Shown here: positions 16,774 through 45,842 of the stretch, one piece after another
Position numbering within the stretch: the first letter of the stretch is position 1
How the letters are laid out: every line of letters starts with the position of its first letter
NCBI GenBank assembly: GCA_964636885.1
Contig: CAZWVA010000002.1
Location: 22,050 to 86,049 of the forward strand
Length of the DNA: 64,000 nt
Direction of reading: 5' to 3'
Origin: an uncultured Spirochaetia bacterium
Lineage (GTDB): Bacteria > Desulfobacterota_D > UBA1144 > Nemesobacterales > CSP1-2
The notes under the pieces: model-generated
Told to the model about the DNA's origin: nothing
Databases searched by the model: none
What the model saw: only the letters and a program-made list of their open reading frames with translations
Program-made: the position numbers and the translations under genes

Positions 16774-16906
16774 CTCCATTGCCTTTACTAAGAGGGCATT
16801 ACACATAAATATAAAACGAGCCGAAATATTGTCAACCGGTTCCCCTTTTGGAAGCGTCGTGATTGACAATGCTCGATTTCACTATAGAGTTATGTGTGAT
16901 ATTTTT

Positions 16907-29593: not shown

Positions 29594-29669
29594 TGGTCGG
29601 GGTGACCGGACTCGAACCGGTGACCCCCGGCCCCCCATGCCGGTGCGCTACCAACTGCGCCACACCCCG
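29594..29669 (-). tRNA. tRNA-Pro (anticodon GGG).
   Basis: Minus strand reads CGGGGUG-UG-GCGCAGUUGGUAGCGC-A-CCGGC-AUGGGGG-GCCGG-GGGUC-ACCGGUUCGAGUCCGGU-CACCCCG-A-CCA. Cloverleaf with anticodon GGG and encoded CCA. Confidence 0.85.
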
Positions 29670-30561: not shown

Positions 30562-30590
30562 TTGACTTCATTTATTAAAGTTAATAAAAT
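30562..30590 (+). promoter_or_regulatory. Candidate sigma70-type promoter for the GNAT / AIR-synthase-like cluster.
   Basis: TTGACT, a 17-bp spacer, then TAAAAT. About 35 nt upstream of the GNAT start. Confidence 0.5.
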
Positions 30591-30623
30591 GTGAAATATA
30601 GTAGATGAAATCCTCTGCGGGGT

Positions 30624-31079
30624 GTGGGAATGTCGGAGTTTGTCTTTAAGATCGCCGAAACCGAGGAGGAATTAGAAGAGTACTTTCGTCTTCGACATGA
30701 GGTTTTTGTTAGAGAGCAGAGGATATTTCCCGAAACCGATGTGGATGAATACGACAAAGACGCCATACACATAATCGCTATAGAGGGGGCAAGCGGAAAG
30801 GTGGTGGGCGGGGTCAGGTGTTACAGGAAAGATGGGGACACCTGGTTTGGCAGTCGTCTTAGTGCTGATCCCGGTTATCGCAATGGAAGAGTCGGATCGA
30901 ATCTCGTAAGATTCGCTGTAAAAACGGTAAAGTCCAGGGGCTGTAAAACGTTCCTTGCGTATATACAGCCTCAGAACGTAAAGTTCTTCGAGAGGCTGGG
31001 CTGGAAGGCCATAGGGGATCAGGTTATATATCACGGCCTTCCCCATCAGCTTATGGAAGCCGATCTGGAATCGGGCTAA
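30624..31079 (+). CDS. GNAT N-acetyltransferase, MSMEG_0567/Sll0786 'nitrogen-starvation' family-like.
   Basis: GNAT fold. Its position directly upstream of a sll0787-type AIR-synthase-like gene supports the family call. GTG at 30624 or ATG at 30630. Confidence 0.65.
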   Translation: MGMSEFVFKIAETEEELEEYFRLRHEVFVREQRIFPETDVDEYDKDAIHIIAIEGASGKVVGGVRCYRKDGDTWFGSRLSADPGYRNGRVGSNLVRFAVKTVKSRGCKTFLAYIQPQNVKFFERLGWKAIGDQVIYHGLPHQLMEADLESG

Positions 31080-31165
31080 AGCGATGCGCCGAGGTTCCGA
31101 GTCAGGGTTTTGTTTAAGACCCTCTCTTTATGTCTTGACGTCTTAATATCTATCAGGAGAAACAG

Positions 31166-32131
31166 ATGCGAGAGCTGATTTCGGCCTTACGTTCCTCTCC
31201 CCGGTTGAATCAGAAGGGAAGGCTGAAAGAGCTATGGCGCTTACTTCCCCGCGTTTGTAAGGCTGACGGGAGCGACGTGGTTCTTGGCGACGATGCCGCT
31301 GCTATTAAGGACGGGGATGGTTATCTGCTCCTTGCCGCCGAAGGCGTCTATCATCCACTTTTAAAATCGAACCCTTACCTTGCCGGCCGTACCTCGGTTC
31401 TCACAAACGTAAACGATATATACGCTATGGGTGGAAGGCCGATAGCGATTGTGGACGTGCTTTTTGCGTCTGATTCTGAAGAGTCGGGTGAGGTGCTTCG
31501 CGGGATTAGGGATAATTCATCCCGTTACGGGGTCCCGGTGGTCGGTGGGCACTTGACCGAGGAGGCTACCTCCTCTTCCCTTTCCGTCTTCATACTGGGT
31601 AGGGCTAGGAAACTGCTCTCCGGTTTTAATGCCGAGGCGGGGGATGATCTGGTTTTTATCTCCAACCTCAATGGAAGGTTCTATCCGGGGTTTAATTTCT
31701 GGGATTCCTCTAGTGGTCTCAGCGATGGGGATGTCCTAACCCATTTGGAACTCCTTCCCCAAATAGCCGAGGAGGGGCTCGCCGATGCGGCAAGGGACGT
31801 GAGCATGGCGGGACTTATAGGCTCCACATTGATGCTCCTTGAGGGCTCTGGGAAGGGGGCTGAGATCCATATAGACAGGATTCCAGCACCCTTTGAGGTT
31901 CCCCTAAAGGAGTGGCTTCTTACGTTTCCAAGCTTTGGTTTCGTCTTATCCCTAAGACCGCAAAACACCCAAAGGGTTGAGGATAGGTTCAGACGATTGG
32001 GACTTGCATGCGAGAGGATCGGTAAGGTGACCTCTGAGCCCCTCGTGTTGTTCATCAACGATAAGGGTGAAAGGGGCCTCTTTTGGGATCTTAGCTCGGA
32101 GCCTTTAATCGGGCTTGGAGAGGTTAGGTAA
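31166..32131 (+). CDS. AIR-synthase-related (PurM-like) protein, Sll0787 family-like.
   Basis: PurM-like N-domain 'VLGDDAAAIKDGDGYLLLAAEG' and the C-domain. Confidence 0.7.
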   Translation: MRELISALRSSPRLNQKGRLKELWRLLPRVCKADGSDVVLGDDAAAIKDGDGYLLLAAEGVYHPLLKSNPYLAGRTSVLTNVNDIYAMGGRPIAIVDVLFASDSEESGEVLRGIRDNSSRYGVPVVGGHLTEEATSSSLSVFILGRARKLLSGFNAEAGDDLVFISNLNGRFYPGFNFWDSSSGLSDGDVLTHLELLPQIAEEGLADAARDVSMAGLIGSTLMLLEGSGKGAEIHIDRIPAPFEVPLKEWLLTFPSFGFVLSLRPQNTQRVEDRFRRLGLACERIGKVTSEPLVLFINDKGERGLFWDLSSEPLIGLGEVR

Positions 32132-32167
32132 ATGCAATATATATATCTGCTTCGATCGGGTGGTTAA

Positions 32168-32755
32168 ATGGCTGAAGAAAAGAACCAAGTGGATAGGATC
32201 ATCCTAAAACTGGGAGAGAAGATAAAAAGGCTTCGTATAGAAAAGGGCTGGTCCCTTCAGGATCTATCGAAAAAATCGGGTATCTCTGCAGCCGGGATCC
32301 ATAAGATCGAGTCTAACGGGATAATCCCTACCATAACCACCATGATGAAGATCGCCGATGCCTTGGGAAAAAGGGTTAGCTTCTTTATAGAGGAGGAGGG
32401 AGAAGAGGAGGATGCCGTTTTTGTTCCCGCGAAGGAGCGGGAGACGATCTTCACATTCAAGAAGGGGCTTGATCTTCAGGGTATCTCCGCAAAGAAATAC
32501 GGGGATTTCATTATGACGGCGGCTTATTCTATAGTTGATGTGGGGGCATCGAGTGGGAAAAAACCCATGGTGCATCGTGGGGAGGAATTGGTCTACTGTC
32601 TTCAGGGAAAGATGGAGTTCAAGGTGAAGGGCAAAACCTATGTCTTAAACCCTGGCGATAGCCTCCATTTTAGGACACACGTAGAGCATAGCTGGAGGAA
32701 TATAGGCGATATTCAGGCAAAACTGATATGGGTGCTCGCCGTCCCTCCATCATAA
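32168..32755 (+). CDS. XRE-family HTH transcriptional regulator with a C-terminal cupin domain.
   Basis: HTH 'LRIEKGWSLQDLSKKSGISAAGIHKIESN'. C-terminal cupin (HRGEELVYCLQGKMEFKV...HFRTHVEHSW). Confidence 0.8.
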   Translation: MAEEKNQVDRIILKLGEKIKRLRIEKGWSLQDLSKKSGISAAGIHKIESNGIIPTITTMMKIADALGKRVSFFIEEEGEEEDAVFVPAKERETIFTFKKGLDLQGISAKKYGDFIMTAAYSIVDVGASSGKKPMVHRGEELVYCLQGKMEFKVKGKTYVLNPGDSLHFRTHVEHSWRNIGDIQAKLIWVLAVPPS

Positions 32756-32785
32756 GGGATTCGTGAATGTCTACTCGGCAACCGA

Positions 32786-34111
32786 GTGGTTACGGGGTTA
32801 AGTCACATGGTATCTAGAACAAAGGGAAAGGAAGTGGGTGGCTTAGAAAGGTACTTGGGTGAGCGAATCATAAGGGCTAATCGGCTTGCCATAGAAAGGA
32901 TTCTTTCCGTTGAGCCTGTCCTTGTCGATGTGGATACCGCTCTTAACGTCATCCCAGGCATGACCCCAAATACGGTGCTTCACGCAGGCCCCCCAATAGA
33001 GTGGGAGAGGATGTGCGATCCTATGAAAAGGGCCGTTAGGGGGGCTTTGATATTTGAGGGGCTAGCGGCCGACGAAGGGGAGGCTGAAAAACTGCTTCTC
33101 ATGGATAAGGTTAAACTCTCTCCAAACCATCACCATGGTTCCGTAGGCCCAATGACTGGGGTCATTTCCCCTTCTATGCCCGTGGTTGTTACGAGGGACC
33201 CGACATTCGGCAGAACGGCCTACTCCACCTTTAATGAGGGCGGGGGAAAGGTCCTATGGTTTGGAGCCTTCGGAAAAGAAACCCTGGAGCGCCTCAGGTG
33301 GATACGGGATGTGTTTGGTCCCTTAATGAAGAAGGCGATTTCAAGAACCGGGGGGATCCCGATCTGGAATATACTGGCCCAGGGGATTCAGATGGGAGAT
33401 GAGTGTCATAACCGTCATGCGGCTTCTACGAACCTCTTCCTCAAGGGAATGGTAGAGCCCCTTTTTTCTTTGGATTCGTCGAAGGATGCCGTCCTTCAAG
33501 CCTATCGCTTTATAGCCGGAAACAGCCACTTTTTTCTTAACATCACAATGACGGCATGCAAACTCGCAATGGACGCCGCACGCTATATAGAGGACTCTAC
33601 CGTTGTGACTGCCATGTCCCGAAACGGAACAGATTTCGGGATACGTGTTAGCGGTCTTGGGGATAGCTGGTTTATAGCCCCTTCTCCCTATCTCCTTGAT
33701 GCCCTCTATAACCCGGGATACGGTCCCGACGACGGTGCGCCCGATATAGGGGATAGCTCTATTATCGAGACCATGGGGCTCGGCGGGTTTGCCATCGCCT
33801 CTGCCCCTGCCATGGCCTCATTTGCCGGAGGGGGTTTCCAGGAGGCCGTGGGTATCACGAAGCGGATGGAGCTAATAACCATCGCTAAGAATCCTAAGTT
33901 CGGAATTCCCGTTCTGGACTTTGAAGGAACCCCATTGGGGATCGATGTGCGCAGGGTCGTTGAAACGGGGATCCTCCCAAGTATAAACAGCGCTGTGATT
34001 CATAAGAGCTCGGGGGCTGGACAGATTGGAGCCGGGATTGTGAGGGCTCCCTATGAGTGCTTTAAAAAGGCCATCATGGCCTTTGGTAAGAGGTATAAGC
34101 TGGTGGCTTAA
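32786..34111 (+). CDS. DUF1116-domain protein (YlbE/AllG-like, FdrA partner subunit).
   Basis: A 441-aa protein resembling the E. coli YlbE family (conserved NHHHGSVGPMTG region). Immediately upstream of the fdrA-like gene. Confidence 0.6.
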   Translation: MVTGLSHMVSRTKGKEVGGLERYLGERIIRANRLAIERILSVEPVLVDVDTALNVIPGMTPNTVLHAGPPIEWERMCDPMKRAVRGALIFEGLAADEGEAEKLLLMDKVKLSPNHHHGSVGPMTGVISPSMPVVVTRDPTFGRTAYSTFNEGGGKVLWFGAFGKETLERLRWIRDVFGPLMKKAISRTGGIPIWNILAQGIQMGDECHNRHAASTNLFLKGMVEPLFSLDSSKDAVLQAYRFIAGNSHFFLNITMTACKLAMDAARYIEDSTVVTAMSRNGTDFGIRVSGLGDSWFIAPSPYLLDALYNPGYGPDDGAPDIGDSSIIETMGLGGFAIASAPAMASFAGGGFQEAVGITKRMELITIAKNPKFGIPVLDFEGTPLGIDVRRVVETGILPSINSAVIHKSSGAGQIGAGIVRAPYECFKKAIMAFGKRYKLVA

Positions 34112-34142
34112 TGCCACTTCGGACATTAGAAGGGGAAGGGAA

Positions 34143-35732
34143 TTGCCAGTAATAAGCACAGTCAAGAAGAACCACTACCAGGATTCCATGAAGCTCATGC
34201 AGATAAGCCAGAGGCTTAGTGCGCTTCCCGGTATAAGAAAGGCCTCGGCCATCATGGCGACAGAGGCCAATCTAAGGATGCTTAAGGAATCCGGATTAAT
34301 CGGCGAACCCCCGGACTCGGTGAGCGCAAACGATCTCATAGTGGCCATTGAGGCTGAATCCGAGAGCGCCGCAAGGGGGGCGATTGAGAGGCTGGACTCC
34401 CTCCTTACCCCTCCACGGACCGAGGTTATTGGAAAAGCGGAATATAGGAGCCTTGATTCAGCTCATTCGGCTCTTCCTCAGGCAAACCTCTTGGTGGTTT
34501 CCCTTCCCGGTCAGTACGCGAAGATCGAGGTGGCAAAGGCGATTGAGAGAGGACTCCATACGTTTCTCTTCAGCGATAACCTGACTGTGGAGGAGGAGAT
34601 AGAACTAAAGGAAAGGGCAAGGGAAAGAGGGCTTCTCGTCATGGGGCCTGGGTGCGGCACCGCGATAATAAACGGAGTAGGGCTTGGGTTTGCAAACGTT
34701 GTGAGAAGGGGACCGATCGGGGTTATTGCGGCTGCTGGAACCGGGATGCAGGAGGTTACAACCCTAATCCACAATATGGGCTCAGGGATCTCCCATGCGA
34801 TTGGACTCGGTGGGAGAGACCTATCGGAAAGGGTAGGCGGCATTATGGCGATGGAGGCGATAAGGATGCTCGAGAGGGATGAGAGCACCGAGGTTCTCCT
34901 TCTAGTTTCTAAGCCGCCTTCAGAAAGGATAGCGAAGACGGTGATTGACCTCATTCGTGATTATGGAAAACCCGCCGTCATCTGCTTTCTCGGAGAGGGG
35001 ATTCGGAGGAAAGAGGAGGGCTCAAGGATCCGTTTTTCATCCACCCTCGAGGGGGCGGCTCTTGAGGCCTTAAAATTCATAAGGGACTCTATAGGGATTC
35101 CCGATAAAAGGGGTCTTCTGGACTCCCGCTTGAGAAGGAGGGCCGAGGGGTTTATTAAATCCCTGGATCCAAAACAGCGTTACCTTCGTGGGTTGTTCTC
35201 CGGGGGTACCCTCTGCTACGAGGCCCAGCAGGTGCTTACCCCGATCTTGGGAAGGGTTTATTCAAACGCCCCCCTTCATAGAGAAAACAAGCTGGATGAT
35301 TCAAATCGGAGTAAGGGTCATACGTGTATTGACCTTGGTGAGGAAGAATTCACCGTGGGGCGTCCTCATCCTATGATGGATTCCACTCTAAGGAGCGAGA
35401 GACTCCTGAGGGAGGCGTCTTATCCGGGCACGGCCGTAATACTCTTTGACGTGGTTCTCGGATACGTGGCGAGTCCAGACCCAGCCGGTGACCTCCTCCC
35501 TGCGATTAAGGAAGCAAAAAGGATAGCGAGGAGTAAGGGACGTACCCTGGCTTTTGTGGCCCACGTCTGCGGGACGGAAGGGGACCCCCAGGGCTTAAGA
35601 TCGCAAGAAGAGAAACTTAGAAAGGCGGGGGTTTTGGTTTTTCCCACAAACGCCCTAGCCTCTAGGGTCGCAGGTTGGATTACGACAAGGGGTAAAAAGG
35701 GACTGGAGACCTTAAGGCAGGGCATACAATAG
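34143..35732 (+). CDS. fdrA: FdrA-family protein (succinyl-CoA-synthetase-like CoA-binding/ligase fold; AllF-like).
   Basis: N-terminus 'VKKNHYQDSMKLMQISQRLSALPGIRKASAIMATEANLRML' parallels E. coli FdrA. Proposed TTG start at 34143 with RBS 'gaaggggaaggg'. The ORF-track start at 34053 would overlap the upstream gene. Confidence 0.7.
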   Translation: MPVISTVKKNHYQDSMKLMQISQRLSALPGIRKASAIMATEANLRMLKESGLIGEPPDSVSANDLIVAIEAESESAARGAIERLDSLLTPPRTEVIGKAEYRSLDSAHSALPQANLLVVSLPGQYAKIEVAKAIERGLHTFLFSDNLTVEEEIELKERARERGLLVMGPGCGTAIINGVGLGFANVVRRGPIGVIAAAGTGMQEVTTLIHNMGSGISHAIGLGGRDLSERVGGIMAMEAIRMLERDESTEVLLLVSKPPSERIAKTVIDLIRDYGKPAVICFLGEGIRRKEEGSRIRFSSTLEGAALEALKFIRDSIGIPDKRGLLDSRLRRRAEGFIKSLDPKQRYLRGLFSGGTLCYEAQQVLTPILGRVYSNAPLHRENKLDDSNRSKGHTCIDLGEEEFTVGRPHPMMDSTLRSERLLREASYPGTAVILFDVVLGYVASPDPAGDLLPAIKEAKRIARSKGRTLAFVAHVCGTEGDPQGLRSQEEKLRKAGVLVFPTNALASRVAGWITTRGKKGLETLRQGIQ

Positions 35733-35751
35733 GGGTTAATGGAGAAATCGG

Positions 35752-36690
35752 ATGAAGGTGGCCGTGGTAGCGTTTGGTGGAAATGCCCTCATGGATTTTA
35801 GCGGCAAGAGCAGTTACGCCGAACAGGTGATGAAGGCCGAAAAGATGTGTAAAGAGATATTGAGTCTATTTGAACTCGGCTATGCCGTCATAATCACTCA
35901 CGGAAACGGTCCACAGGTCGGCAATCTCCTCATGCAACAGGAGTGTTTAGCTGGTTCCATTCCGCCTATGCCACTCGATGTCTGTGATGCGATGACACAG
36001 GGACAGATGGGTTATATGATAGAGCAGACGCTGAGAAACGCATTTACTAAGAATAGCATGAAGAAACCAGTCGTCTCTATCGTTACACAGGTGGTTGTTT
36101 CTGAGAACGACCCTGCCTTTAGGAATCCCACGAAGTTTATCGGCCCGTTCTTTAGTAAGGAGGAAAGCGAGTCGCTTAGGAGGGAAAGGGGATGGCAGAT
36201 GAAGGAGGATTCTGGAAGGGGTTGGAGGCGCGTTGTGCCGTCCCCAAGGCCGGTTGATATAGTTGAAAGAGACGAGATTGAGGAGATGGTAAAGAGGGAT
36301 TTTGTCGTAATAGCATGCGGGGGCGGAGGGATCCCGGTTCTTCAAGATAAGAAGGGAAGGCTTAAAGGTGTTGCCGCCGTAATCGATAAGGACTTTGCGG
36401 CCGAAAGGCTTGCAAGCCTTATAGGCGCGGAGATGCTCCTCTTAATCACATCTGTAAGTCAGGTATCCATCTTCTACGGGACCCCAAAGCAGAGGAGCAT
36501 AGAGAAGATGACGCTTAAGGAAGCCGAGAGGTATAGGGACGAAGGGCACTTTCCGCCTGGGAGTATGGGGCCCAAGATCGAAGCCGCTATTAAGTTTCTC
36601 CATTCGGGCGGCAAGAGAACGATCATAACCTCCTTAGAAAACATAAAAGCGGCGATAAGGGGGGAGGGTGGGACGGAGATAGTGCCATGA
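35752..36690 (+). CDS. arcC: Carbamate kinase.
   Basis: N-terminus 'KVAVVAFGGNALM...ITHGNGPQVGNLLM', matching the carbamate kinase signature. 312 aa. Confidence 0.85.
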   Translation: MKVAVVAFGGNALMDFSGKSSYAEQVMKAEKMCKEILSLFELGYAVIITHGNGPQVGNLLMQQECLAGSIPPMPLDVCDAMTQGQMGYMIEQTLRNAFTKNSMKKPVVSIVTQVVVSENDPAFRNPTKFIGPFFSKEESESLRRERGWQMKEDSGRGWRRVVPSPRPVDIVERDEIEEMVKRDFVVIACGGGGIPVLQDKKGRLKGVAAVIDKDFAAERLASLIGAEMLLLITSVSQVSIFYGTPKQRSIEKMTLKEAERYRDEGHFPPGSMGPKIEAAIKFLHSGGKRTIITSLENIKAAIRGEGGTEIVP

Positions 36691-36969
36691 TTAAAATGCG
36701 CGTAGAAAAGAGACAGGTGTTTGTTTCCGGTGCTTCGTGCTTAGGTATTAAGCATGAGTCATATGGGATTTCAAAAAAAATCGCTCTTTTTTATGTCTTA
36801 GGAGGGTCTTTGGATTGGTATGTTCTTTGCAAACGGGATATGAGGGAAGCGAAATGAAGGAATCGAAAGGCGGTGATTTAATAGATTGCTCTTTATTTGT
36901 TTTTATATTAAGATGGAGGATGCTAAAGCCCGGATTAAGAAATCCCATATAAAAGGAGGTGAAAGAGAG

Positions 36970-37815
36970 ATGAAGATAAATAGAAAGGTGTTTGATGCCC
37001 ATAGCCATATAGGCGAACTCCCCGCATACAGGTTCTATGACCTCAAGGAACCCGTAAAGCCGACGGTGATTGAGTATCCATCTTCAAAGGAATATCTGAA
37101 GCACATGGATGAATACGGTGTGGACAGGGCGATGGTCATATCCAATTACGGGGTTCCCGATTCGGGACAGCCGTTTACCCTAAACCCACTTGTAATCGAT
37201 AGCGTCCACAAGGCGGACAGACTCGTTGGCGCCATCTGGGTTTCTGGTATGGCAAAGGATAAAGAGCGAACGGAGGAGGCGCTAAGGCACGTAAAGGAAA
37301 AGGGGATAGTGGCATTAAAGGCTACGTGTCTCCTTGGAGGGACCTATAAGCCCAGCGAGTGGGACGAGACGACAAGGGGGATATGGGAGGGCATAGTGAA
37401 GGCGGCTGAGGAGAATAACCTCGTTCTACATATTCACACAAGCCCAGGAGGCGGTTCCGATGTGGGAAACGCATTCGAGTTTGTGAAGGAATATGGAAAA
37501 CGGATTAAGATCCATATAGTTCATATGGGAGGGGGTGTTAGTGGTCATATAAGGCTCGTTCCCAGGTTCATAGAACTCATTCAAGACGGTTATCAGGTCT
37601 ATACGGATACCACATGGGCTATCGGTTTTGGTTCTAGATGGTTGCTCTATGAGATTGAACGTACTGGTATAGGCACGGATAACGTGCTCTTTGCCTCTGA
37701 TACGCCCTGGGGGGATTTTCCGTCTGAGTACTGGAAGGTTGAGGGGGCAAAGATCTCGGAGGAGTTAAAGAACAAGATCTTCTGGGAAAACGCCCAGAGG
37801 CTTTATTCCAGATAG
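36970..37815 (+). CDS. Amidohydrolase-2 family (TIM-barrel metal-dependent hydrolase).
   Basis: N-terminal 'FDAHSHI' metal-binding motif with later His/Asp residues (HIHTSPGG; FASDTPW). RBS 'aaaaggaggtg' before the ATG at 36970. The ORF track opens at 36886. Confidence 0.7.
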   Translation: MKINRKVFDAHSHIGELPAYRFYDLKEPVKPTVIEYPSSKEYLKHMDEYGVDRAMVISNYGVPDSGQPFTLNPLVIDSVHKADRLVGAIWVSGMAKDKERTEEALRHVKEKGIVALKATCLLGGTYKPSEWDETTRGIWEGIVKAAEENNLVLHIHTSPGGGSDVGNAFEFVKEYGKRIKIHIVHMGGGVSGHIRLVPRFIELIQDGYQVYTDTTWAIGFGSRWLLYEIERTGIGTDNVLFASDTPWGDFPSEYWKVEGAKISEELKNKIFWENAQRLYSR

Positions 37816-37842
37816 AAATCCAAAGAAAGGAGGTAATAAAAG

Positions 37843-38334
37843 ATGGCGGTAGATAGGGTAAAAGGAGAGAGACCACAGAAGGGAAAGGCGATTGTCAATT
37901 ATGAGGAGAAGTTATTTCCCGATTATAAAGCGAATCCGGGAGAAAAGGCTCTATTCCTCGTCCACACGGTCCCGTATGAGGGCTCTGTGGCAGGTATAAA
38001 TATGCTTACGGCTATAAGGTGTAAGAGGAAGGGCTATGATACGAGCGTTCTTTTCTACGGCCCAGCCTCGGCCATACCTGTATACAGGGGCTGGCCCAAT
38101 ATAGGAGACGACGCATATGGCGCCGGGATACAGCTCTACCCCAATCTCGTTGAGAGGATGCTAAAGGAGGGAATAAAGGTCTATGCATGTCGCTTTTCAG
38201 CTGCCTGCCTTATAGGTGTGAGGGAAGAAGACATGCTGGAGGGTGTGACACCAATACATCCTACTGATATTCTAGATATAGTGATCGAACACCATAGGGC
38301 CGGTGCAATGATATTTAGTACGTGGACTGTGTAG
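37843..38334 (+). CDS. DsrE/DsrF-like protein, or MSMEG_0572/Sll0783 nitrogen-starvation family-like protein.
   Basis: 163 aa. Rossmann-like fold 'KALFLVHTVPYEGSVAGINMLTAIRCKRKGYDTSVLFYGPAS'. The family call rests on size and context and is tentative. Confidence 0.4.
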   Translation: MAVDRVKGERPQKGKAIVNYEEKLFPDYKANPGEKALFLVHTVPYEGSVAGINMLTAIRCKRKGYDTSVLFYGPASAIPVYRGWPNIGDDAYGAGIQLYPNLVERMLKEGIKVYACRFSAACLIGVREEDMLEGVTPIHPTDILDIVIEHHRAGAMIFSTWTV

Positions 38335-38440
38335 TACTTAAGGATTAGTTTAGATTAACTCCCTGTGGTCTAAAGAAACGGACCGCTTGGTTTAGAGCTG
38401 TCACTGGGATTTCGGATGTACCGATTGCGGTCTTGCGATT

Positions 38441-39619
38441 GTGGGTTTTGACCGGATCTTGGGGATCCGAGATCAGAAGGAGGGGATTATGGATTCAAGG
38501 ACCCTAAAAGTAGAGTTACAGAGTTATGGGCTTAGGATTCCCGATACGAGGGGCATAAGGAGGGGTGGAGCAGGACCTACGGGTGGGATCCATATCAAGA
38601 TCCTTCCCGACAGTGAGGGGAACGTGCCTGTTGTAGGCGATTTCGTTGATTCCTCTCCGTATTATCTGGACCGGATAAACGGTGAATACTGGGTTTTTAA
38701 AAACGACGTTGCCGTAGCTCAGGTAGAGCTCATGGGGGTGGCGAGGTTCTACGACTATAAGACCTCATCCGGGATACCGATGCAAAGGGTCGGACTCCTC
38801 CACTGCCCGACTACATTTGCCACAACGCTCCTTCAAACCTGCGATTTCTGGGAGGACGAGAGGCGTTGCAAGTTTTGCGGGATCGAACTCACGCTTAAGG
38901 ATAGGAGTACAGTAGGATTTAAGAACGCAAAGAGCCTGGTTGAGACCATACTCTGTGCAAAGGAACTAGATGGGATTACGAATATAGTTTTTACCTCCGG
39001 GGTTGCCAAGGACGAGGAAAAGGCACTCTCAAAATACGCCGAGATATGTTCGGAGGTGAAGAGATCGACCGATCTACCGATACAGCTTCAGATAATTCCA
39101 CCCGGGGACCTATCATGGCTTAAGAGGCTGAGGGATGCCGGTGTAGATGCCCTCGGTGTTCACATCGAAACCTTCGATCCAGACGTGTTTGAAAAGATAA
39201 CCCCTGGAAAGGCGAGGATCGGGTTTAATAGGTACGTTGAGACGTGGAAGGAGGCCGTGAACGTCTTTGGGAGGTGGCAGGTTAGTACATACGTGCTTGT
39301 TGGACTCGGGGAGAGACTAGAGACGATAATAGAGGGAACGGCCCTCTGCGCCGACATAGGGGTTTATCCGTTCATCGTTCCGTTTCGACCGATTGCGGGA
39401 ACGCCTATGGAGAATGTAAGGCCACCCGATCCCAAGGTGATGGAGTATGTCTATACAGAGGCCGCAAAGGTGCTTTCAAGGTATGATGGGGGCTCAAAGA
39501 GCAGTAAGGCGGGGTGTGTAAGCTGTGGTGAGTGCTCTGCGCTCCCCGATTTTGAAAGGGCTTTAAATCCCGGTGGGGTGGGATTTAAAAGGTTTGTAAA
39601 ACCGACTAACGTGATCTGA
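38441..39619 (+). CDS. Radical SAM protein with a non-canonical Cys motif (MSMEG_0568 family-like).
   Basis: Cys cluster 'HCPTTFATTLLQTCDFWEDERRCKFCG' (C-x8-C-x2-C rather than CxxxCxxC). TIM-barrel-like rSAM core (GITNIVFTSG; VLVGLGE). C-terminal CxxC. Confidence 0.65.
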   Translation: MGFDRILGIRDQKEGIMDSRTLKVELQSYGLRIPDTRGIRRGGAGPTGGIHIKILPDSEGNVPVVGDFVDSSPYYLDRINGEYWVFKNDVAVAQVELMGVARFYDYKTSSGIPMQRVGLLHCPTTFATTLLQTCDFWEDERRCKFCGIELTLKDRSTVGFKNAKSLVETILCAKELDGITNIVFTSGVAKDEEKALSKYAEICSEVKRSTDLPIQLQIIPPGDLSWLKRLRDAGVDALGVHIETFDPDVFEKITPGKARIGFNRYVETWKEAVNVFGRWQVSTYVLVGLGERLETIIEGTALCADIGVYPFIVPFRPIAGTPMENVRPPDPKVMEYVYTEAAKVLSRYDGGSKSSKAGCVSCGECSALPDFERALNPGGVGFKRFVKPTNVI

Positions 39620-39658
39620 TCTTTTTGGATTTGTATAAATGACTCCCTTCTTCCTCTC

Positions 39659-41071
39659 GTGGAAGTCGGAGGAGGTCTAAGAGGTGATGGTAAGATGACT
39701 CAAAACGATCTACGTATCATCGTGGTAGGAGGGGGTGCTGCTGGGATCTCAGCAGCATCCACGGCAAGGTCCGTAGCCCCTCAGGCCTCGGTTATCCTTT
39801 TTACCGAGTTTGAAGATGTGGCATATAGCCCCTGTGGTATTCCATTCGTTCATGGAAGGGAGATCCCTGATTTTAAGAGCCTTTTTCTTCAAACCCCTGA
39901 GCACTATGCCGAGATCGGAATAGACCTCAGGCTCCAAACAACCGTTACCGGGATAGATCTCGAAAAGCGTACTGTAAGTGTTGGCTCCCAGGTATTTCCC
40001 TGGGACCGTCTTGTTATCGCTACCGGATTCGAGTATGAAAAGCCTGCCATTCCGGGTGTAGACCTAGAGGGGCTTTACTATGTAAAAAACATCCGCCGCG
40101 CAATGGAGTTTGACAAGATACTCGATCAGGTAAAGAGGGTCGTCGTTGTATCGGCAACGCCACTGGGGATCGAGATGACTGGAAACCTCGCCCAGAGGGG
40201 GCTTGAGACGCACCTTGTGGATGAAGGCCCTTGGCTTATGTCAGAGGTTGCCGACCCGGACATAATGCAACCCGTGCAGAAGTCTCTCGAGGAACTTGGG
40301 GCAAGGATCTATCTGGGGACAAAGGTGCTTGAGTTTAAGGGGGAAAACGGAAGGGTAAGATCCATCAGCACCACGGCTGGGGACATAGAATGCGATGTGG
40401 TTGTTATCGCTACTCATAAGAAGCCGAATAACCGTCTTTCCCGCGAGGCGGGGCTAAAGATAGGGGCAACGGGTGGGATAATAGTGGACGACCATATGAG
40501 AACCTCTATGAAGGATGTTTATGCGGCCGGTGACTGCATAGAGGTCATTCACGGTGTGACCGATCTTCCCATTCAGGGGCTTTCCGGGAGTCACGCCTAC
40601 TCTCAGGGAAGGGTGGCGGGGGCCAACGCCGCGGGCGATGACCGGGCCTATGACCCGGTATATGTCCCTTGGGGAATGGTAGGGGGAAGGGTCCAGATCG
40701 GTGGGGTTTCTCTTGGAGAAACCCTGCATAAGGCCCTGGGGATACCACATATAGTAGCCGCCGCGCAGGGGATTTCGAGGGCGAGGTACTATCCTGGGGT
40801 AAGCAGGATCCTAGTAAAACTCATCGCCGACCCGAAAACGCTTCGCGTGATGGGTGCTCAAATGGCGGGTGGCGAGGGGATTAAAGAGAGGGCCGATTTT
40901 CTCGCATTTGCCATAAAGCGCGGGGCTACTCTCGAAGACTTTGCCTGGATGGAAAACGTCTATTCTCCTCCGATCGGGGCATTGATGGAGCCGATTGCCC
41001 TTGCGGCACAGGCTGGATTGGCTGAATTGAAGAAGCGAGGAGCCGAACCCCCCAAATTCGCTGGTGCATGA
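39659..41071 (+). CDS. FAD-dependent pyridine nucleotide-disulfide oxidoreductase (MSMEG_0569 family-like).
   Basis: Dinucleotide-binding motif 'IVVGGGAAGISAAS', a second Rossmann motif (VVVVSATPLGIEM), and 'AAGDCIEV'. Confidence 0.75.
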   Translation: MEVGGGLRGDGKMTQNDLRIIVVGGGAAGISAASTARSVAPQASVILFTEFEDVAYSPCGIPFVHGREIPDFKSLFLQTPEHYAEIGIDLRLQTTVTGIDLEKRTVSVGSQVFPWDRLVIATGFEYEKPAIPGVDLEGLYYVKNIRRAMEFDKILDQVKRVVVVSATPLGIEMTGNLAQRGLETHLVDEGPWLMSEVADPDIMQPVQKSLEELGARIYLGTKVLEFKGENGRVRSISTTAGDIECDVVVIATHKKPNNRLSREAGLKIGATGGIIVDDHMRTSMKDVYAAGDCIEVIHGVTDLPIQGLSGSHAYSQGRVAGANAAGDDRAYDPVYVPWGMVGGRVQIGGVSLGETLHKALGIPHIVAAAQGISRARYYPGVSRILVKLIADPKTLRVMGAQMAGGEGIKERADFLAFAIKRGATLEDFAWMENVYSPPIGALMEPIALAAQAGLAELKKRGAEPPKFAGA

Positions 41072-41085
41072 AAAGGGAAGGCTAA

Positions 41086-41349
41086 ATGTCAGAGAAAAGA
41101 TCATTCGGTGAGTGGTTGAGAAAAAACGCCGAAAAATACCTGCTCGAAGCCGCCGCAGATGAGATGGCAGTCCGTTACCCTGGTCTCTGTGTGAAACCCT
41201 ACAGAGAAAGGGGAATCGTCCCCTTCTTCTGGAGGAGCGTCTTTGTCCCCATTTATTCAAGGATCCCCTGGAGCATCCGCAAGAAGGTGATCCTTTTTAG
41301 CTCCTATCCCACTGGGGAACGCCCCCAGTGGAAGAGGCGGAGTTACTAA
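41086..41349 (+). CDS. Small 87-aa protein, MSMEG_0570 family-like.
   Basis: Size and position (after the flavin oxidoreductase and before the glycosyltransferase) match the small conserved member of the nitrogen-starvation cluster. Confidence 0.45.
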   Translation: MSEKRSFGEWLRKNAEKYLLEAAADEMAVRYPGLCVKPYRERGIVPFFWRSVFVPIYSRIPWSIRKKVILFSSYPTGERPQWKRRSY

Positions 41350-41394
41350 GACACGGGCCTGATTCTGGGATCTAGGGTATCTCCCCTGCCCTCT

Positions 41395-42417
41395 TTGGTT
41401 GTTGGATTTCTTGATATGCTAGTTGTCGCTGAGGCCATAGGTTACAAGGCACTAAAGGCGCTAAGAGGTTCCGGAGGAACGGCCAGGGTGTATAGCGCTT
41501 TTGATCACGCCCTTTATATAAGACCCCGCAGGGGTTCCCTTATAAGTGTGATTAGAGACAGGGACTACATAGGCCCAGCCTCAATATTGCTCAGGGAATC
41601 CAGTTATATGGATTTTAAGTCAATGGGTATTAATGAGGGGACGAGAATAGAGGTTAGAAATGATAGACTGGTCTTTCAGGGTAGTGTACTCACGATTGAG
41701 ATGGGTAGCCCCTCTATCTGGTTCCCTCCTCCCATTCCTCGGCGAAGCGAACTCGTGGGATTGGGGAGCATGAGCCTAAACCTCAGGGTCCTTAGGGATA
41801 TGATATACACCGCCCCGAGCCGGGAAGGGCTGGTTCCGCTCTTAGAGAACGTTGAGCTATACGGGCCCCTTCAGATCTTTCTTAAACCGCAAAAGCCCAC
41901 GCTTTCTGAGAGGACAAGACCCTATATAGAAACGCTCATGTGGGGGCTTTTTTGGGGCGATATCGATGCGATTATAAGTAACGCCCTACAGATACTCGGA
42001 CTCGGCCCTGGGCTTACCCCCTCATGCGATGATTTTCTAACGGGTTTAATCCTCGGTTTAGTCATAGGCGGGAAGGTGCTTCTAAGGGAGAGAAGGAAGG
42101 AGCTTGTTTTTTACAGAAGGGTTTCTTCCGAGATATGCCGGGCGGCGAAGGGTAAAACGACCATATACAGTGAGATCCTTCTAAACCAAGCCCGCCGTGG
42201 CGAAGGGCCTCATGCCCTAATCGGACTCATCCACGCCCTTCTCACAGGGGGACCGGATAGGGTTGCGAGCTTATCAAAGACCGTAATAGCCATGGGAGAG
42301 ACCTCTGGGGCGGATATTTCAATCGGGGTCTACTATGGAATCCGGTTTTTGGTTTCTAGACTAGAAAGGATGGAGGATCTACTCAGTTTAATGGATAGTC
42401 CAGATGGAATCGCTTAA
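41395..42417 (+). CDS. Hypothetical 340-aa protein. It may be a DUF2877 (YlbF/AllH-like) third subunit for FdrA/DUF1116, but this is speculative.
   Basis: TTG start. Soluble protein. The N-terminal region 'SAFDHALYIRPRRGSLISVIRDRDYIGPASILL' is reminiscent of YlbF-family proteins. Overlaps the glycosyltransferase gene by 14 nt. Confidence 0.35.
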   Translation: MVVGFLDMLVVAEAIGYKALKALRGSGGTARVYSAFDHALYIRPRRGSLISVIRDRDYIGPASILLRESSYMDFKSMGINEGTRIEVRNDRLVFQGSVLTIEMGSPSIWFPPPIPRRSELVGLGSMSLNLRVLRDMIYTAPSREGLVPLLENVELYGPLQIFLKPQKPTLSERTRPYIETLMWGLFWGDIDAIISNALQILGLGPGLTPSCDDFLTGLILGLVIGGKVLLRERRKELVFYRRVSSEICRAAKGKTTIYSEILLNQARRGEGPHALIGLIHALLTGGPDRVASLSKTVIAMGETSGADISIGVYYGIRFLVSRLERMEDLLSLMDSPDGIA

Positions 42418-43591
42418 AATCGCACTCCTTACCTATTCGACGAAGCCGAGAGGAGGCGTGGTCCATACCCTAAACCTGGCCGAGAGGTTGGTTCTTCTCA
42501 ATCACAGGGTTCATATATACGCCCTTAGTGGAGGGGAGGGCTTTTTTAGGCCAGTGGGCGTTCCGCATACTCTCATTCCTTGCCCGGTGGTAGCCGGTGA
42601 GGACATCGACGATAAGGTGAGAAGATATATCCGTATCTACTCCGAGTACATGGCTTCTATAAGGGAGGACTACGATATTTACCACGCACAGGACTGTATA
42701 TCCGCAAACGCCCTATTCGAGATCAGGAGTCGCGGTTTAATCAGGTTCTTTGTAAGAACCGTTCATCATATAGACGATTTCACATCTGAGTCCCTTATTG
42801 ACTGTCAGTTAAGAAGCATCGTAGAGCCCGATTACCTGATTGTTGTCAGTAGGTTTTGGGAGAGAGAACTCCGCTCCCGTTATTCCCTGAACTCCACCCT
42901 CATATATAACGGGGTGGATCTAGAGAGGTTTAGGGCAAACGAGAAGGCCTCAAAAGAAGAGGCAAAGGGGGATTTCTCTCTTAAAGGGTACAATGTGATG
43001 CTTAGTATAGGGGGGATCGAGCCTCGGAAAAACGCTCTTACCGCGCTCAGGGCGTTTGGTATCGCAAGCCGGTATTTTAAGGCAAGGGGTAAGCGCCTTG
43101 TGTGGTTGATAGGAGGAGGGGAGACGCTCTTTGATTACAGGGCCTATAGGGAAGGGTTCTTTTCCGAGATAAAAGAGCTCGGACTAAGAGTCGGTGAGGA
43201 TATAATCGTACTTGGAGCCGTTCCTGAGGACTCAATGGTTAAGCTCTACAGGGCAGCGGACGTCTTTGTCTTCCCCTCTATTAAAGAGGGATGGGGACTC
43301 GTCGTGCTTGAGGCCATGGCATCTGGGCTTCCCGTAATCGCCTCTGGTATAGAGCCTATGACGGATTACCTGATGGACGGGGAGAACGCCCTTTTGGTTT
43401 CCCCTATGGACCATGAGGGCTTGGCCGAAAGGATTATAGGTATCTTAGAGGAAGCCGGGCTTCGTGATAAACTGATTAGAAACGGAATGAAGACGGTCGA
43501 ATCCTATAGCTGGCAAAAGACCGCTTTAAAGCACTCGGAGTTTTATAGGGGAATTCTGGAGGGTATCGGACGGATTAAAGAGCGAACTTGA
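42404..43591 (+). CDS. Glycosyltransferase family 4/GT1 (MSMEG_0565 family-like).
   Basis: GT-B fold. C-terminal 'FVFPSIKEGWGLVVLEAMASGLPVIAS' EX7E motif. Confidence 0.8.
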   Translation: MESLKIALLTYSTKPRGGVVHTLNLAERLVLLNHRVHIYALSGGEGFFRPVGVPHTLIPCPVVAGEDIDDKVRRYIRIYSEYMASIREDYDIYHAQDCISANALFEIRSRGLIRFFVRTVHHIDDFTSESLIDCQLRSIVEPDYLIVVSRFWERELRSRYSLNSTLIYNGVDLERFRANEKASKEEAKGDFSLKGYNVMLSIGGIEPRKNALTALRAFGIASRYFKARGKRLVWLIGGGETLFDYRAYREGFFSEIKELGLRVGEDIIVLGAVPEDSMVKLYRAADVFVFPSIKEGWGLVVLEAMASGLPVIASGIEPMTDYLMDGENALLVSPMDHEGLAERIIGILEEAGLRDKLIRNGMKTVESYSWQKTALKHSEFYRGILEGIGRIKERT

Positions 43592-44066: not shown

Positions 44067-45842
44067 ATGAAAAAGAGGAATTTCTCAGATCTTCAGGATT
44101 TCATCGGGTATCTTGAGGCGATAGGGGATCTAAAGAGGATAAAGGCAGAGGTCGACCCCATACTCGAAATCACTGAGATCTCATCAAGGGTGATTAAGGA
44201 AAAGGGTCCGGCACTCCTATTTGAGAACGTAAGGGGCTCCTCATATCCCCTTGCGATTAACCTCTTTGGAACCGAGGAGCGGATGGAGCTTGCCCTTGGT
44301 AGGAAACCGAAAGAGGTGGGAGAAGAGTTGGTTTTCCTATTTGAAAAACTGAATCCCCCTTCTCTGATGTCCTTCTTTTCTATACTCCCCAGGGTATTTG
44401 GGTTCCTCTCCATGAGGACTAAGGATGTGAGAAGCGGGGTGGTTCAAGAGGTAGAGGAGGAGCCAGACCTGGACAGGCTACCCATAATAAAATGCTGGCC
44501 TAAGGATGGCGGCAGGTTCATAACGCTTGGTCTCGTTCTAACCCAGGACCCGGTTACGAGGAGAAGAAACCTTGGGCTCTACAGGATGCAGGTATATGAC
44601 AAGAGGACGACGGGTATGCACTGGCATCCACATAAGGGTGGTGCGGCTCATTACCACGAGGCAGCGAAGCTCGGGATCGACCTTGAGGCCGCAGTCGTTC
44701 TCGGAGGAGACCCAAAGATGATCTTCACAGCCGTTGCCCCGCTTCCCGAAGGCATGGACGAGATCGCCTTCGCGAGCTACCTCCGCGGGAGCCCTATCCC
44801 GATGGTTCGGGGAAAGAGCGTATCCCTTAGTGTCCCTGCAAACGCAGAGTTTGTGATAGAAGGCGTCGTTCCCCAGGGTGAGATAAGGCGTGAGGGTCCA
44901 TTTGGAGACCACTTTGGGCACTACTCGATGGAGGCCGATTTTCCGGTCTTTAGGGTGAGTGAGATAACACACAGGAATAACCCAATTTATCCGGCAACGG
45001 TGGTGGGGAAGCCCCCAAAGGAGGATTTATTCCTTGGGATCGCGGCGGCCGAGATGTTCTCCCCGCTTATAAGGATCATACAACCGGAGGTAAAGGGGAT
45101 GTGGGCATATCCGGAGGCCGGGTTCCACAACCTCCTTGTCGTCTCTGTTGACGAGAGGTATCCAAAGAACGGGATAAAGGCCATGCTCGCCCTCTGGGGT
45201 ACTGGACAGCTTCTCCTTACAAAGTGCATGATAACGGTCTCAAGCGATGTGAACCCGAGGGATTTTAGCGCCGTTCTTAGGGAGATAGGGGAGAACTTTG
45301 ATCCCAGGGAGGACTTTCTCCTCATTCCCTGGGCCCCATTAGATACGCTGGACTTTACGAGCGGGAAGCTGAACGTGGGAAGCAAGATGGGGATTAACGC
45401 CGTAAGGCGCCTAAACGGTTCGGGCAGAAAGCGGGAGGTTCCAAAGAGCGTTCCAGACCCGAGGGAGAAGATAGGAGAGGTTCTAGACCACAGGCTTCTT
45501 CCAGGGGGTTTCCTTGTCTTAAAGGTTAGGAAGAATCCTAAGGACACGATCCGTAGGGTTTTCGATTTGCCGGGATATGGAGACATAAGGATCGTTGCCG
45601 TCGTAAGCCCGGATATTGACATACACGATGACACGGAGCTAATATGGGGTATATTTACGAGGTTTGATCCATATCTCGACGTCGTATTCGAGGAGACGGA
45701 ACTCCGCGGCTCTGCTGTCGTTTACGGTGGGAGGATGGGGATAGATGCCTCTTTTAAGGAGTGGTATCCTGAGGTAATCGAGATGTCGGAAGACGTAAAA
45801 GGGAAGGTGAGAGAGAGATGGAAGGAGTACTGGAGAGAATAG
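44067..45842 (+). CDS. UbiD-family decarboxylase (prenylated-FMN dependent), likely menaquinone/futalosine-pathway associated.
   Basis: 591 aa with the UbiD N-terminus (DLQDFIGYLEAIGDLKRIKAEVDP...LLFENVRGS) and the conserved decarboxylase core. Confidence 0.8.
   Translation: MKKRNFSDLQDFIGYLEAIGDLKRIKAEVDPILEITEISSRVIKEKGPALLFENVRGSSYPLAINLFGTEERMELALGRKPKEVGEELVFLFEKLNPPSLMSFFSILPRVFGFLSMRTKDVRSGVVQEVEEEPDLDRLPIIKCWPKDGGRFITLGLVLTQDPVTRRRNLGLYRMQVYDKRTTGMHWHPHKGGAAHYHEAAKLGIDLEAAVVLGGDPKMIFTAVAPLPEGMDEIAFASYLRGSPIPMVRGKSVSLSVPANAEFVIEGVVPQGEIRREGPFGDHFGHYSMEADFPVFRVSEITHRNNPIYPATVVGKPPKEDLFLGIAAAEMFSPLIRIIQPEVKGMWAYPEAGFHNLLVVSVDERYPKNGIKAMLALWGTGQLLLTKCMITVSSDVNPRDFSAVLREIGENFDPREDFLLIPWAPLDTLDFTSGKLNVGSKMGINAVRRLNGSGRKREVPKSVPDPREKIGEVLDHRLLPGGFLVLKVRKNPKDTIRRVFDLPGYGDIRIVAVVSPDIDIHDDTELIWGIFTRFDPYLDVVFEETELRGSAVVYGGRMGIDASFKEWYPEVIEMSEDVKGKVRERWKEYWRE

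Follow-up and report, generated by a model that had tools for sequence, protein, structure and literature searches.

The Nit1C cluster has been known since 2005 and has been described as nitBCDEFGH in Pseudomonas, sll0783-0787 in Synechocystis and gpr (MSMEG_0565-0572) in M. smegmatis. In this canonical form of the cluster, the nitrilase converts a nitrile, R-CN, to R-COOH and NH3. Here we analyze a stretch of 64,000 nucleotides (nt) from an uncultured Spirochaetia bacterium (GTDB lineage Desulfobacterota_D; contig CAZWVA010000002.1, positions 22,050 to 86,049), hereinafter the window, that contains a relative of this cluster without a nitrilase. The locus consists of 13 open reading frames (ORFs), all on the plus strand (30624-43591), and a check of the ORFs of the window reproduced the coordinates given in a first-pass annotation that had been made from the sequence alone. 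We tentatively interpret it, with somewhat less than even confidence, as one functional unit and a second, nitrilase-free form of the Nit1C/gpr/Sll0783-0787 nitrogen-starvation cluster, in which nitrogen would leave through phosphorolysis by the carbamoyltransferase AllFGH followed by carbamate kinase.

Canonical clusters are regulated by nitrogen starvation and are required for growth on cyanide as the nitrogen source (PMC6039565, PMC7815647, PMC11049912). The other described system that is relevant here is the three-subunit carbamoyltransferase AllFGH, which was discovered in 2024 (Kim & Kim 2024, PMC11326118). In E. coli, AllFGH reversibly converts oxalurate and Pi to oxamate and carbamoyl phosphate, and acts together with a catabolic carbamate kinase that yields NH3, CO2 and ATP; the Km for oxamate is 37 mM, which favors phosphorolysis in vivo (PMC11326118, PMC9843812). 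In nitrifiers, allFGHK modules adjoin biuret and triuret genes (PMC12625717), so that AllFGH with carbamate kinase constitutes a portable exit for ureido nitrogen. In the open literature (subscription-only papers were outside the scope of the search), no paper joins AllFGH, DUF1116, DUF2877 or FdrA with Nit1C, sll0783/sll0787, MSMEG_0567/0568 or clusters of radical S-adenosylmethionine (SAM), GNAT and AIR-synthase genes, in agreement with the first-pass annotation, which did not recognize the architecture as a described system. The individual families and Nit1C itself are already known; the nitrilase-free AllFGH form of the cluster appears to be new.

The shared Nit1C core and the missing nitrilase

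Protein families were assigned by comparing NCBIfam and Pfam profile scores with the curated cut-offs. Five proteins encoded in the cluster pass the NCBIfam cut-offs for families of Nit1C/MSMEG_0565-0572/Sll0783-0787, and these are the components common to both forms, namely NitB, NitD, NitE, NitF and the MSMEG_0565 glycosyltransferase. The first gene (30624..31079) encodes a FeeM-like GNAT acyltransferase of the NitE family (MSMEG_0567/Sll0786; TIGR04045, 157 bits against a cut-off of 68), which also matches Pfam Acetyltransf_1 and FeeM and shows 62-87% identity to its counterparts in the eight syntenic loci described below. The next gene (31166..32131) encodes the sll0787-family AIR-synthase-like protein of the PurM superfamily (NitF; TIGR04049, 353 against 321), containing the AIRS and AIRS_C domains. 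Its C-terminus, GLGEVR, lacks the C-terminal Cys of the HypE type, and no HypE model is among its NCBIfam matches. The MSMEG_0568 (NitD) family radical SAM protein (38441..39619; TIGR04043, 337 against 304) also matches LipS2, BioB and LipA models. As indicated by comparison of motifs across 13 loci, CX9CX2C replaces the CX3CX2C motif in this protein and an extra CX2CX2C is found near the C-terminus, whereas canonical members contain CX10CX2C. The last gene (42404..43591) encodes the MSMEG_0565-family GT4 glycosyltransferase (TIGR04047, 397 against 260), for which the next-best models are MshA/BshA-like; this family is encoded in many, not all, canonical clusters. Thus, the four hallmarks proposed in the first-pass annotation for these genes hold at the level of curated profiles, and the atypical Cys motif of the radical SAM protein is real. 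The same annotation had listed the product of 37843..38334 as an additional DsrE-like protein. A distant likeness to DsrE is indeed detectable (weak matches in Pfam and in the PDB), but the protein is itself a hallmark of the cluster, the Sll0783/MSMEG_0572 (NitB) family (TIGR04044, 183 against 110), in which Cys116 (YACRF) is invariant in 12 canonical and variant sequences. A sequence-only search of the PDB with this protein and with the Amidohydro_2 protein discussed below gave marginal matches only.

The core proteins of the window lineage show 35-50% identity to canonical and to other variant proteins alike; those from Chloroflexota, marine and Actinomycetota loci are intermediate. The gene order differs from the canonical one, in which Sll0783, nitrilase, radical SAM, GNAT and AIR-synthase-like genes precede the glycosyltransferase gene; in the window, the GNAT and AIR-synthase-like genes come first, Sll0783 and radical SAM genes follow at a distance and the glycosyltransferase gene is the last. 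The earlier suggestion of a trio of genes inserted midway into an otherwise canonical cluster accordingly fails, given that the core order is rearranged and that AllH is encoded five genes away from AllG and AllF. A sigma-54 NitA-type regulator, present in Nit1C, is not found in the window cluster.

A tblastn search with two verified Nit6803-family nitrilases (TIGR04048, 564 bits) detected nothing in the 64-kb window or in the related loci. A hidden Markov model (HMM) built from 24 nitrilase sequences and run with filters off against six-frame translations, with a positive control of 602 bits, yielded a best E-value of 6.1 in the window and 0.72 across the window and 11 variant loci. The reported lack of the Nit1C nitrilase is thus confirmed within the 64-kb window. 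Because profile and tblastn tests were likewise negative for NitG/MSMEG_0570 and NitH/MSMEG_0569 (see below), three canonical genes rather than one are gone from the variant. They are replaced by a set of seven to eight genes, namely those for AllF, AllG, AllH, carbamate kinase, an Amidohydro_2 enzyme, a flavoprotein similar to CoA-disulfide reductase (CoADR) and a small protein and, in the window lineage, a helix-turn-helix (HTH)-cupin regulator.

For comparison, canonical loci were collected by a scan with one genome per species, and 24 among the matches listed were examined; these matches come from Cyanobacteria, Alpha-, Beta- and Gammaproteobacteria, Bacteroidota and Verrucomicrobiota. All 24 loci carry the nitrilase and MSMEG_0570, and most also carry MSMEG_0569, in the order Sll0783 - nitrilase - radical SAM - GNAT - AIR-synthase-like, with the glycosyltransferase, MSMEG_0570 or MSMEG_0569 gene next in line. 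Within 10 kb, all 24 lack genes for AllF, AllG, AllH and carbamate kinase as well as for Amidohydro_2, the small protein, the CoADR-like flavoprotein and the HTH-cupin regulator. Conversely, no nitrilase, MSMEG_0570 or MSMEG_0569 is encoded in any of the 12 variant loci (window included). The nitrilase module and the AllFGH module are mutually exclusive, so that the two forms share five genes and differ by a three-gene versus a seven- to eight-gene module.

The variant is widespread. Homologs of the AIR-synthase-like protein form at least 120 distinct clusters at 90% identity, each at least 62% identical to the window protein, with Thermodesulfobacteriota, Candidatus Dadabacteria and 'Deltaproteobacteria' metagenome-assembled genomes (MAGs) as the named carriers. 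A library clustered at 50% identity contains a single close representative, and the next matches share 49% identity or less, which shows that proteins of the window type form a tight clade. Eight contexts were sampled across this clade, from 84% down to 61% identity, all from metagenomic loci of the Thermodesulfobacteriota/Dadabacteria type. The order GNAT - AIR-synthase-like - HTH-cupin - AllG - AllF - carbamate kinase - (Amidohydro_2) - Sll0783 - radical SAM - CoADR-like flavoprotein - small protein - AllH - glycosyltransferase is retained in all eight, and the flanks are mutually unrelated. An identical order in eight independent loci with different flanks cannot be due to chance. The Amidohydro_2 gene is the one with a variable position: in four loci it is located divergently upstream, together with a Zn-ribbon gene, and in three loci and the window it follows the carbamate kinase gene.

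More distant versions combine the same genes in other orders. Homologs of the Amidohydro_2 protein with at least 58% identity are encoded in Chloroflexota, Acidimicrobiales and marine samples. The Chloroflexota locus (L089) has the order Zn-ribbon - Amidohydro_2 - Sll0783 - radical SAM - GNAT - AIR-synthase-like - CoADR-like flavoprotein - small ORF - OsmC - AllG - unassigned ORF - AllF, and the marine locus (L091) has the order Amidohydro_2 - Sll0783 - radical SAM - GNAT - OsmC - AllG - carbamate kinase - AllF - GlcD/GlcF-like - AllH. In Kribbella orskensis VKM Ac-2538 (L032), genes for AllH, AllG, the AIR-synthase-like protein, GNAT, radical SAM, carbamate kinase, AllF and the glycosyltransferase are found together. 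A locus in an Actinomycetota MAG (L034) encodes the AIR-synthase-like protein, GNAT, radical SAM, Amidohydro_2 (59% identity), Sll0783 and the small protein. The window lacks both of the accessory genes of other versions, Zn_ribbon_8 and OsmC. The OsmC-family (thiol peroxidase-like) genes lie inside the Chloroflexota and marine versions (L089:16418-16822 and L091:13107-13502), and the GlcD/GlcF-like pair of the latter is an FAD/Fe-S pair located between AllF and AllH. Two ORFs were considered as candidates for a cryptic AllH, one between AllG and AllF in L089 and the other upstream of the carbamate kinase gene in L032; both were rejected by hhalign, and the AllH of Kribbella is encoded downstream of AllG. 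A Thermococci locus (L027) was discarded as a variant, its AIR-synthase-like and carbamate kinase genes being apparently coincidental, with ABC-transporter and pilus genes between them. A Thermodesulfobacteriota MAG contains a minimal version (L024:7909-10834), an apparent fusion ORF that joins a weak Sll0783-like segment with radical SAM and GNAT and is followed by the AIR-synthase-like gene; this locus continues with a polyprenyl-synthase-like gene, and neither the nitrilase nor AllFGH is encoded there.

These observations bear directly on the possibility that an ordinary oxalurate/allantoin operon (allFGHK) simply landed beside a decaying Nit1C cluster that had lost its nitrilase. Clear homologs of AllF, AllG, AllH and AllK with 25-44% identity to the E. 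coli proteins are what such a juxtaposition would leave. However, the genes are interleaved, with five genes between AllG-AllF-carbamate kinase and AllH; the combination is kept in 12 loci, which represent at least four lineages and differ in internal order; every ORF is intact and its protein sequence conserved; genes of the allantoin pathway are missing from the vicinity; and two promoters are conserved. This scenario is extremely improbable, and the synteny effectively refutes it.

The carbamoyltransferase module and its partners

The subunit set of an oxamate-carbamoyltransferase-type enzyme is complete in the operon, and the three subunits, like the carbamate kinase, all exceed the Pfam or NCBIfam thresholds. 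AllG (DUF1116; 32786..34111; Pfam PF06545, 278 bits) is 44% identical to E. coli YlbE/AllG over 413 amino acids (aa). AllF (FdrA; 34143..35732; NF004760, 474 against 433; CoA_binding and Ligase_CoA domains) is 40% identical to FdrA of E. coli K-12; its ORF is readable from 34053, but homology begins at approximately residue 36, and the true start is likely near 34143. AllH (DUF2877; 41395..42417; PF11392, 72 against 25) is 25% identical to E. coli YlbF over 292 aa (E = 1e-13), and the GPGLTPSxDD motif is common to both. The carbamate kinase is of the ArcC/AllK type (35752..36690; TIGR00746, 408 against 358), begins 19 nt past AllF and is 41% identical to E. coli YbcF/AllK. Three of these genes had been named as DUF1116, fdrA and carbamate kinase in the first-pass annotation, and the fourth as a possible DUF2877-like gene that, being genuine, completes the AllFGH set. 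The AllG, AllF and carbamate kinase genes are consecutive, in this order, and AllH is encoded next to the glycosyltransferase gene, with a 14-nt overlap. The intergenic distances within the 13-gene operon range from -14 to +279 nt, the latter being the gap between the carbamate kinase and Amidohydro_2 genes.

The cluster thus contains homologs of all four components of the E. coli allFGHK operon, but the window genes are non-contiguous and located among radical SAM, GNAT, PurM-like and glycosyltransferase genes. Unlike in E. coli, there are no allantoin genes (allB/C/D/E) near the window set, and the substrate is probably not oxalurate. Homologs of AllC, AllD, AllE, GlxK and YbbY were not detected at E <= 1e-4 in the window and the 11 variant loci; given this lack of allantoin genes, oxalurate derived from allantoin is an unlikely substrate. 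The allFGHK genes of comammox Nitrospira and ammonia-oxidizing archaea are likewise a portable module attached to a non-allantoin nitrogen pathway, with isochorismatase-family hydrolases and nucleoside transporters as partners (PMC12625717), whereas the partners in the window are Nit1C core genes. No biuH, trtA or atzF homolog is seen inside the window cluster. In one variant locus, genes for a urea transporter and an isochorismatase-family protein lie about 9 kb upstream on the opposite strand (L088:1-1178) and may or may not relate to the metabolism of ureido compounds. Cluster-associated AllF, AllG and carbamate kinase show 38-52% identity among themselves, only slightly more than the 38-44% that they share with E. 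coli. The N-terminus of the AllG gene in two loci, from Chloroflexota and a marine lineage (L089:16834-16995 and L091:13508-13621), matches the last ~40-55 residues of E. coli AllF; a small segment has moved from one subunit to the other, as would fit one joint complex.

The Amidohydro_2 (PF04909; 61 against 26) metal-dependent TIM-barrel enzyme (36970..37815), already recognized as an amidohydrolase-2 in the first-pass annotation, is the most conserved of the variant-specific proteins, with 54-63% identity between four lineages (window, Chloroflexota, Actinomycetota and marine), and its gene often adjoins that of Sll0783. The protein contains an HxH motif (DAHSH) and a conserved Asp; H11, H13 and D244 are invariant in 30 homologs, which align from residue 29 of the long ORF (36886-37815). 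The ATG at 36970, which follows AGGAGG, is taken as the start and the TTG at 36886 as spurious because a promoter-like element occupies 36886-36914. In Foldseek searches, an AlphaFold2 (AF2) model (pLDDT 91.6) gave TM values of 0.63-0.71, at 13-19% identity, to non-oxidative decarboxylases (gamma-resorcylate decarboxylase, ACMSD, LigW and IDCase), the LigJ hydratase and a LigI-type lactonase; these nearest solved folds are not amidases. The proposal that this amidohydrolase stands in for the missing nitrilase fits its position and co-occurrence but finds no backing in the fold; in one of the syntenic loci (L004), the gene was not seen within 10 kb.

The flavoprotein (39659..41071) contains Pyr_redox_2 and Pyr_redox_dim domains and belongs to the FAD/NAD(P)H-dependent NADH-oxidase/CoA-disulfide/CoA-persulfide reductase class. 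In the PDB, it is most similar to NADH oxidase, CoADR and CoA-persulfide reductase (E = 4e-60 to 1e-54), it has a lone Cys in a YSPCG motif and it is 60% identical to the counterpart in the Chloroflexota locus; the best NCBIfam model is CoADR, at 277 against a cut-off of 579, which supports class membership only. It had been counted, as the flavin oxidoreductase, among the cluster hallmarks, but an identity with the canonical flavoprotein MSMEG_0569 is rejected: TIGR04046 (cut-off 498) does not appear in the top 25 models, every one of which reaches 59 bits or more, and a genuine Paraburkholderia member (TIGR04046, 688 bits) matches nothing in the window by tblastn. Similarly, the 87-aa ORF at 41086..41349, previously labeled MSMEG_0570-like, is a conserved but unrelated gene. 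It has no Pfam or NCBIfam match, tblastn with a verified MSMEG_0570 member finds nothing, and comparison by hhalign of its profile with that of ten verified MSMEG_0570 proteins gave a probability of 1%. This variant-specific protein (82-87 aa) has 38 invariant columns in seven loci; weak homologs are encoded in the Chloroflexota locus (30% over 54 aa) and, at the edge of a contig, in an Actinomycetota locus (44% over 45 aa). AllG, AllH, the small protein and this Amidohydro_2 subfamily are not represented by models in NCBIfam.

The cysteines and the flavoprotein raise the possibility that both forms of the cluster primarily make and recycle a sulfur-containing redox metabolite or carrier, with AllFGH and carbamate kinase, or the nitrilase, supplying only precursors or energy. 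The radical SAM protein would then insert sulfur, the NitB-like Cys protein would be a sulfur carrier, the flavoprotein a disulfide or persulfide reductase and OsmC a dependent peroxidase. Such a scheme accommodates the invariant Cys of the distantly DsrE-like protein, the single active-site Cys of a flavoprotein of the CoA-disulfide/persulfide reductase class, the weak match of canonical NitH to the YpdA bacillithiol-disulfide-reductase model, the LipS2, BioB and LipA matches of the radical SAM protein, the OsmC genes within the Chloroflexota and marine versions, and the peroxide resistance and raised NADPH/NADP conferred by the M. smegmatis cluster (PMC6039565). Every sulfur link among these is, however, a weak or superfamily-level similarity, no cysteine- or sulfur-mobilizing enzyme (desulfurase or rhodanese) is conserved in the cluster, and the strict retention of either AllFGH with carbamate kinase or the nitrilase is left unexplained. 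This interpretation appears improbable.

Promoters, regulators and flanking genes

Two promoter-like elements are conserved across the loci. P1 (TTGACT-17 nt-TAAAAT; 30562..30590, plus strand) was identified by a consensus scan and by cross-locus conservation; the aligned P1 region has 24 invariant columns in eight loci although the proteins are only 62-90% identical. Its spacer contains an imperfect inverted repeat, ACTTnA-N5-TnAAGT (30565-30581; ACTTCA-TTTAT-TAAAGT in the window), which is invariant in the eight loci and is likely an operator, with the geometry expected for a repressor site. The second element, P2 (TTGCTC-17 nt-TAAGAT; 36886..36914, plus strand), is located in the gap after the carbamate kinase gene, with AGGAGG downstream at about 36954. 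Its -35 TTG and -10 TAnnAT are invariant in the eight loci, irrespective of which gene, Amidohydro_2 or Sll0783, follows. A generic scan for promoters and terminators gave no excess over shuffled expectation, and only cross-locus conservation singled out P1 and P2. The conservation of P2, a putative promoter, at this position suggests that there are probably two transcription units.

The in-operon regulator (32168..32755) combines HTH_3 and Cupin_2 domains, as found with NCBIfam and Pfam profiles, in a PuuR-like architecture, and probably binds the inverted repeat in P1. Its presence inside the cluster, noted in the first-pass annotation, extends to the same position in all eight close loci; the gene is absent from the Chloroflexota, Actinomycetota and marine versions. 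The MerR regulator reported as divergent from the cluster exists (29712-30068) but is no part of the conserved unit, being absent from all 11 related loci, and was not retained as a system member. Large regulators of the SARP/BTAD-AAA-TPR type, which usually control secondary-metabolite gene clusters, adjoin the Kribbella (L032:4494-7709) and Chloroflexota (L089:5589-9191) versions.

The flanks of the window cluster are ordinary housekeeping genes. Upstream are genes for SurE, a TIGR00725 protein, an M23/LysM peptidase and adenine phosphoribosyltransferase; 475 nt past the cluster are the menaquinone genes of the futalosine pathway (44067-46927, plus strand), for a SCO4490-type UbiD-family decarboxylase and the aminofutalosine synthase MqnE. 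Two tRNA genes are on the minus strand (21875-21945 and 29597-29669), the second just downstream of the MerR gene. Rfam models identify no riboswitch within or adjoining the cluster; an unrelated fluoride riboswitch (crcB motif, RF01734; 57 bits against a gathering score of 34) is located at 16721-16792 on the minus strand.

Possible functions of the cluster

Under the interpretation that we tentatively prefer, the five shared core enzymes would perform the same small-molecule chemistry in both forms, and the nitrogen-releasing end of the pathway would have been swapped. In the variant, AllF-AllG-AllH would phosphorolyse an N-carbamoyl intermediate of the acyl-urea or ureido type to carbamoyl phosphate, which carbamate kinase would then turn into NH3, CO2 and ATP. 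The Amidohydro_2 enzyme might act on the carbon skeleton as a decarboxylase or hydrolase, and the role of redox partner, filled by NitH in the canonical form, would pass to the CoADR-like flavoprotein. The two conserved promoters would drive expression, and the palindromic operator in the first is probably the binding site of the HTH-cupin regulator. The more general suggestion of the first-pass annotation, a pathway that makes or breaks a carbamoylated or ureido molecule and is coupled to carbamoyl phosphate and ATP, survives as a natural inference: the merger of a nitrilase-free Nit1C relative with AllFGH and carbamate kinase is conserved, and a shared pathway involving a carbamoyl or ureido group follows naturally from it. 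The analysis demonstrates the gene content, the family memberships, the conservation and the mutual exclusivity of the two modules, whereas the catabolic direction, the nature of the substrate, the pairing of regulator and operator and induction under nitrogen limitation are inferred.

Several observations weigh against this interpretation. The GT4 glycosyltransferase (with MshA/BshA as the next-best models), the FeeM-like GNAT, the BioB/LipA/PylB-like radical SAM protein and the PurM-like enzyme look more biosynthetic than catabolic; in Kribbella and Chloroflexota, the cluster is flanked by regulators of the SARP/BTAD type, which are characteristic of biosynthetic gene clusters; and a conserved transporter is lacking. 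The AllFGH reaction runs both ways in vitro, so that its direction cannot be read from sequence, and at 25-44% identity to the E. coli enzyme the substrate of the window AllFGH need not be oxalurate. Furthermore, the gene sets vary: Amidohydro_2 is not seen within 10 kb in L004, AllH is not seen in the Chloroflexota locus, the AIR-synthase-like gene is not seen in the marine locus, and the short Actinomycetota locus L034 contains no AllF, AllG, AllH or carbamate kinase. Finally, the absence of the nitrilase applies to the 64-kb window of the source genome.

The first of these points are also the ones that favor the main alternative, under which the cluster makes a specialized metabolite, e.g., a glycosylated, N-acylated and carbamoylated one. 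In this case, carbamate kinase would supply carbamoyl phosphate, AllFGH would carbamoylate an amide or amine, and the nitrilase of the canonical form would be an alternative tailoring enzyme. The E. coli AllFGH has been assayed in the carbamoylating direction, and the NCBI description of Nit1C, as reported by Jones et al. (PMC7815647), is of a possibly biosynthetic cluster. Nevertheless, such a function seems rather unlikely, for the same reasons that lead us to prefer a catabolic, ammonia-releasing pathway. Both alternative modules end in ammonia, and it is not obvious how a nitrilase and a carbamoyltransferase could replace one another as tailoring enzymes. The normal direction of ArcC/AllK-type carbamate kinases is towards ATP, and the Km of AllFGH for the amide acceptor, 37 mM oxamate, is poor for synthesis, so that both the kinase type and the kinetics point to catabolism. 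The canonical clusters are nitrogen-controlled, respond to nitrogen starvation and support nitrogen assimilation. The PuuR-like regulator encoded in the operon represents a type often found in catabolic operons.

A precedent for a connection between carbamoyl and nitrile chemistry is the HypF/HypE pair of [NiFe]-hydrogenase maturation, in which carbamoyl phosphate chemistry and an ATP-dependent enzyme of the PurM superfamily bridge the two groups. The window cluster differs from this system in having no HypF homolog and in the lack of the C-terminal Cys in the AIR-synthase-like protein, so that the comparison is an analogy only. With this precedent in mind, a more speculative and rather improbable scheme can be proposed, in which the nitrilase and AllFGH/carbamate kinase forms are two exits of one pathway that carries a one-carbon C-N unit on a cluster-made, possibly thiol-bearing and glycosylated carrier. 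The PurM-like enzyme would interconvert carbamoyl (carboxamide) and cyano groups by ATP-dependent dehydration, as HypE does, and the unit would leave either as a nitrile through the nitrilase or as a carbamoyl group through AllFGH, with conversion of carbamoyl phosphate to ATP and NH3. If true, this would link cyanide and nitrile metabolism to carbamoyl phosphate and would explain the 20-year-old puzzle of Nit1C, including the redox phenotypes.

The identification of this form extends AllFGH to a new and widespread metabolic context, with over 100 clusters of proteins (at 90% identity) from just Thermodesulfobacteriota/Dadabacteria and additional versions in Chloroflexota, Actinomycetota and marine samples, which implies that the substrate range of AllFGH is broader. 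One of the carriers, Kribbella orskensis VKM Ac-2538, is in culture, which opens the question to experiment, and the cluster should be of interest for research on Nit1C, on cyanide and nitrogen scavenging and on carbamoyl-phosphate enzymes. The module swap amounts to a natural experiment that strongly constrains what the shared core enzymes can make or consume: if the two forms run the same chemistry, the intermediate would have to be convertible to ammonia through a nitrile or through a carbamoyl group.

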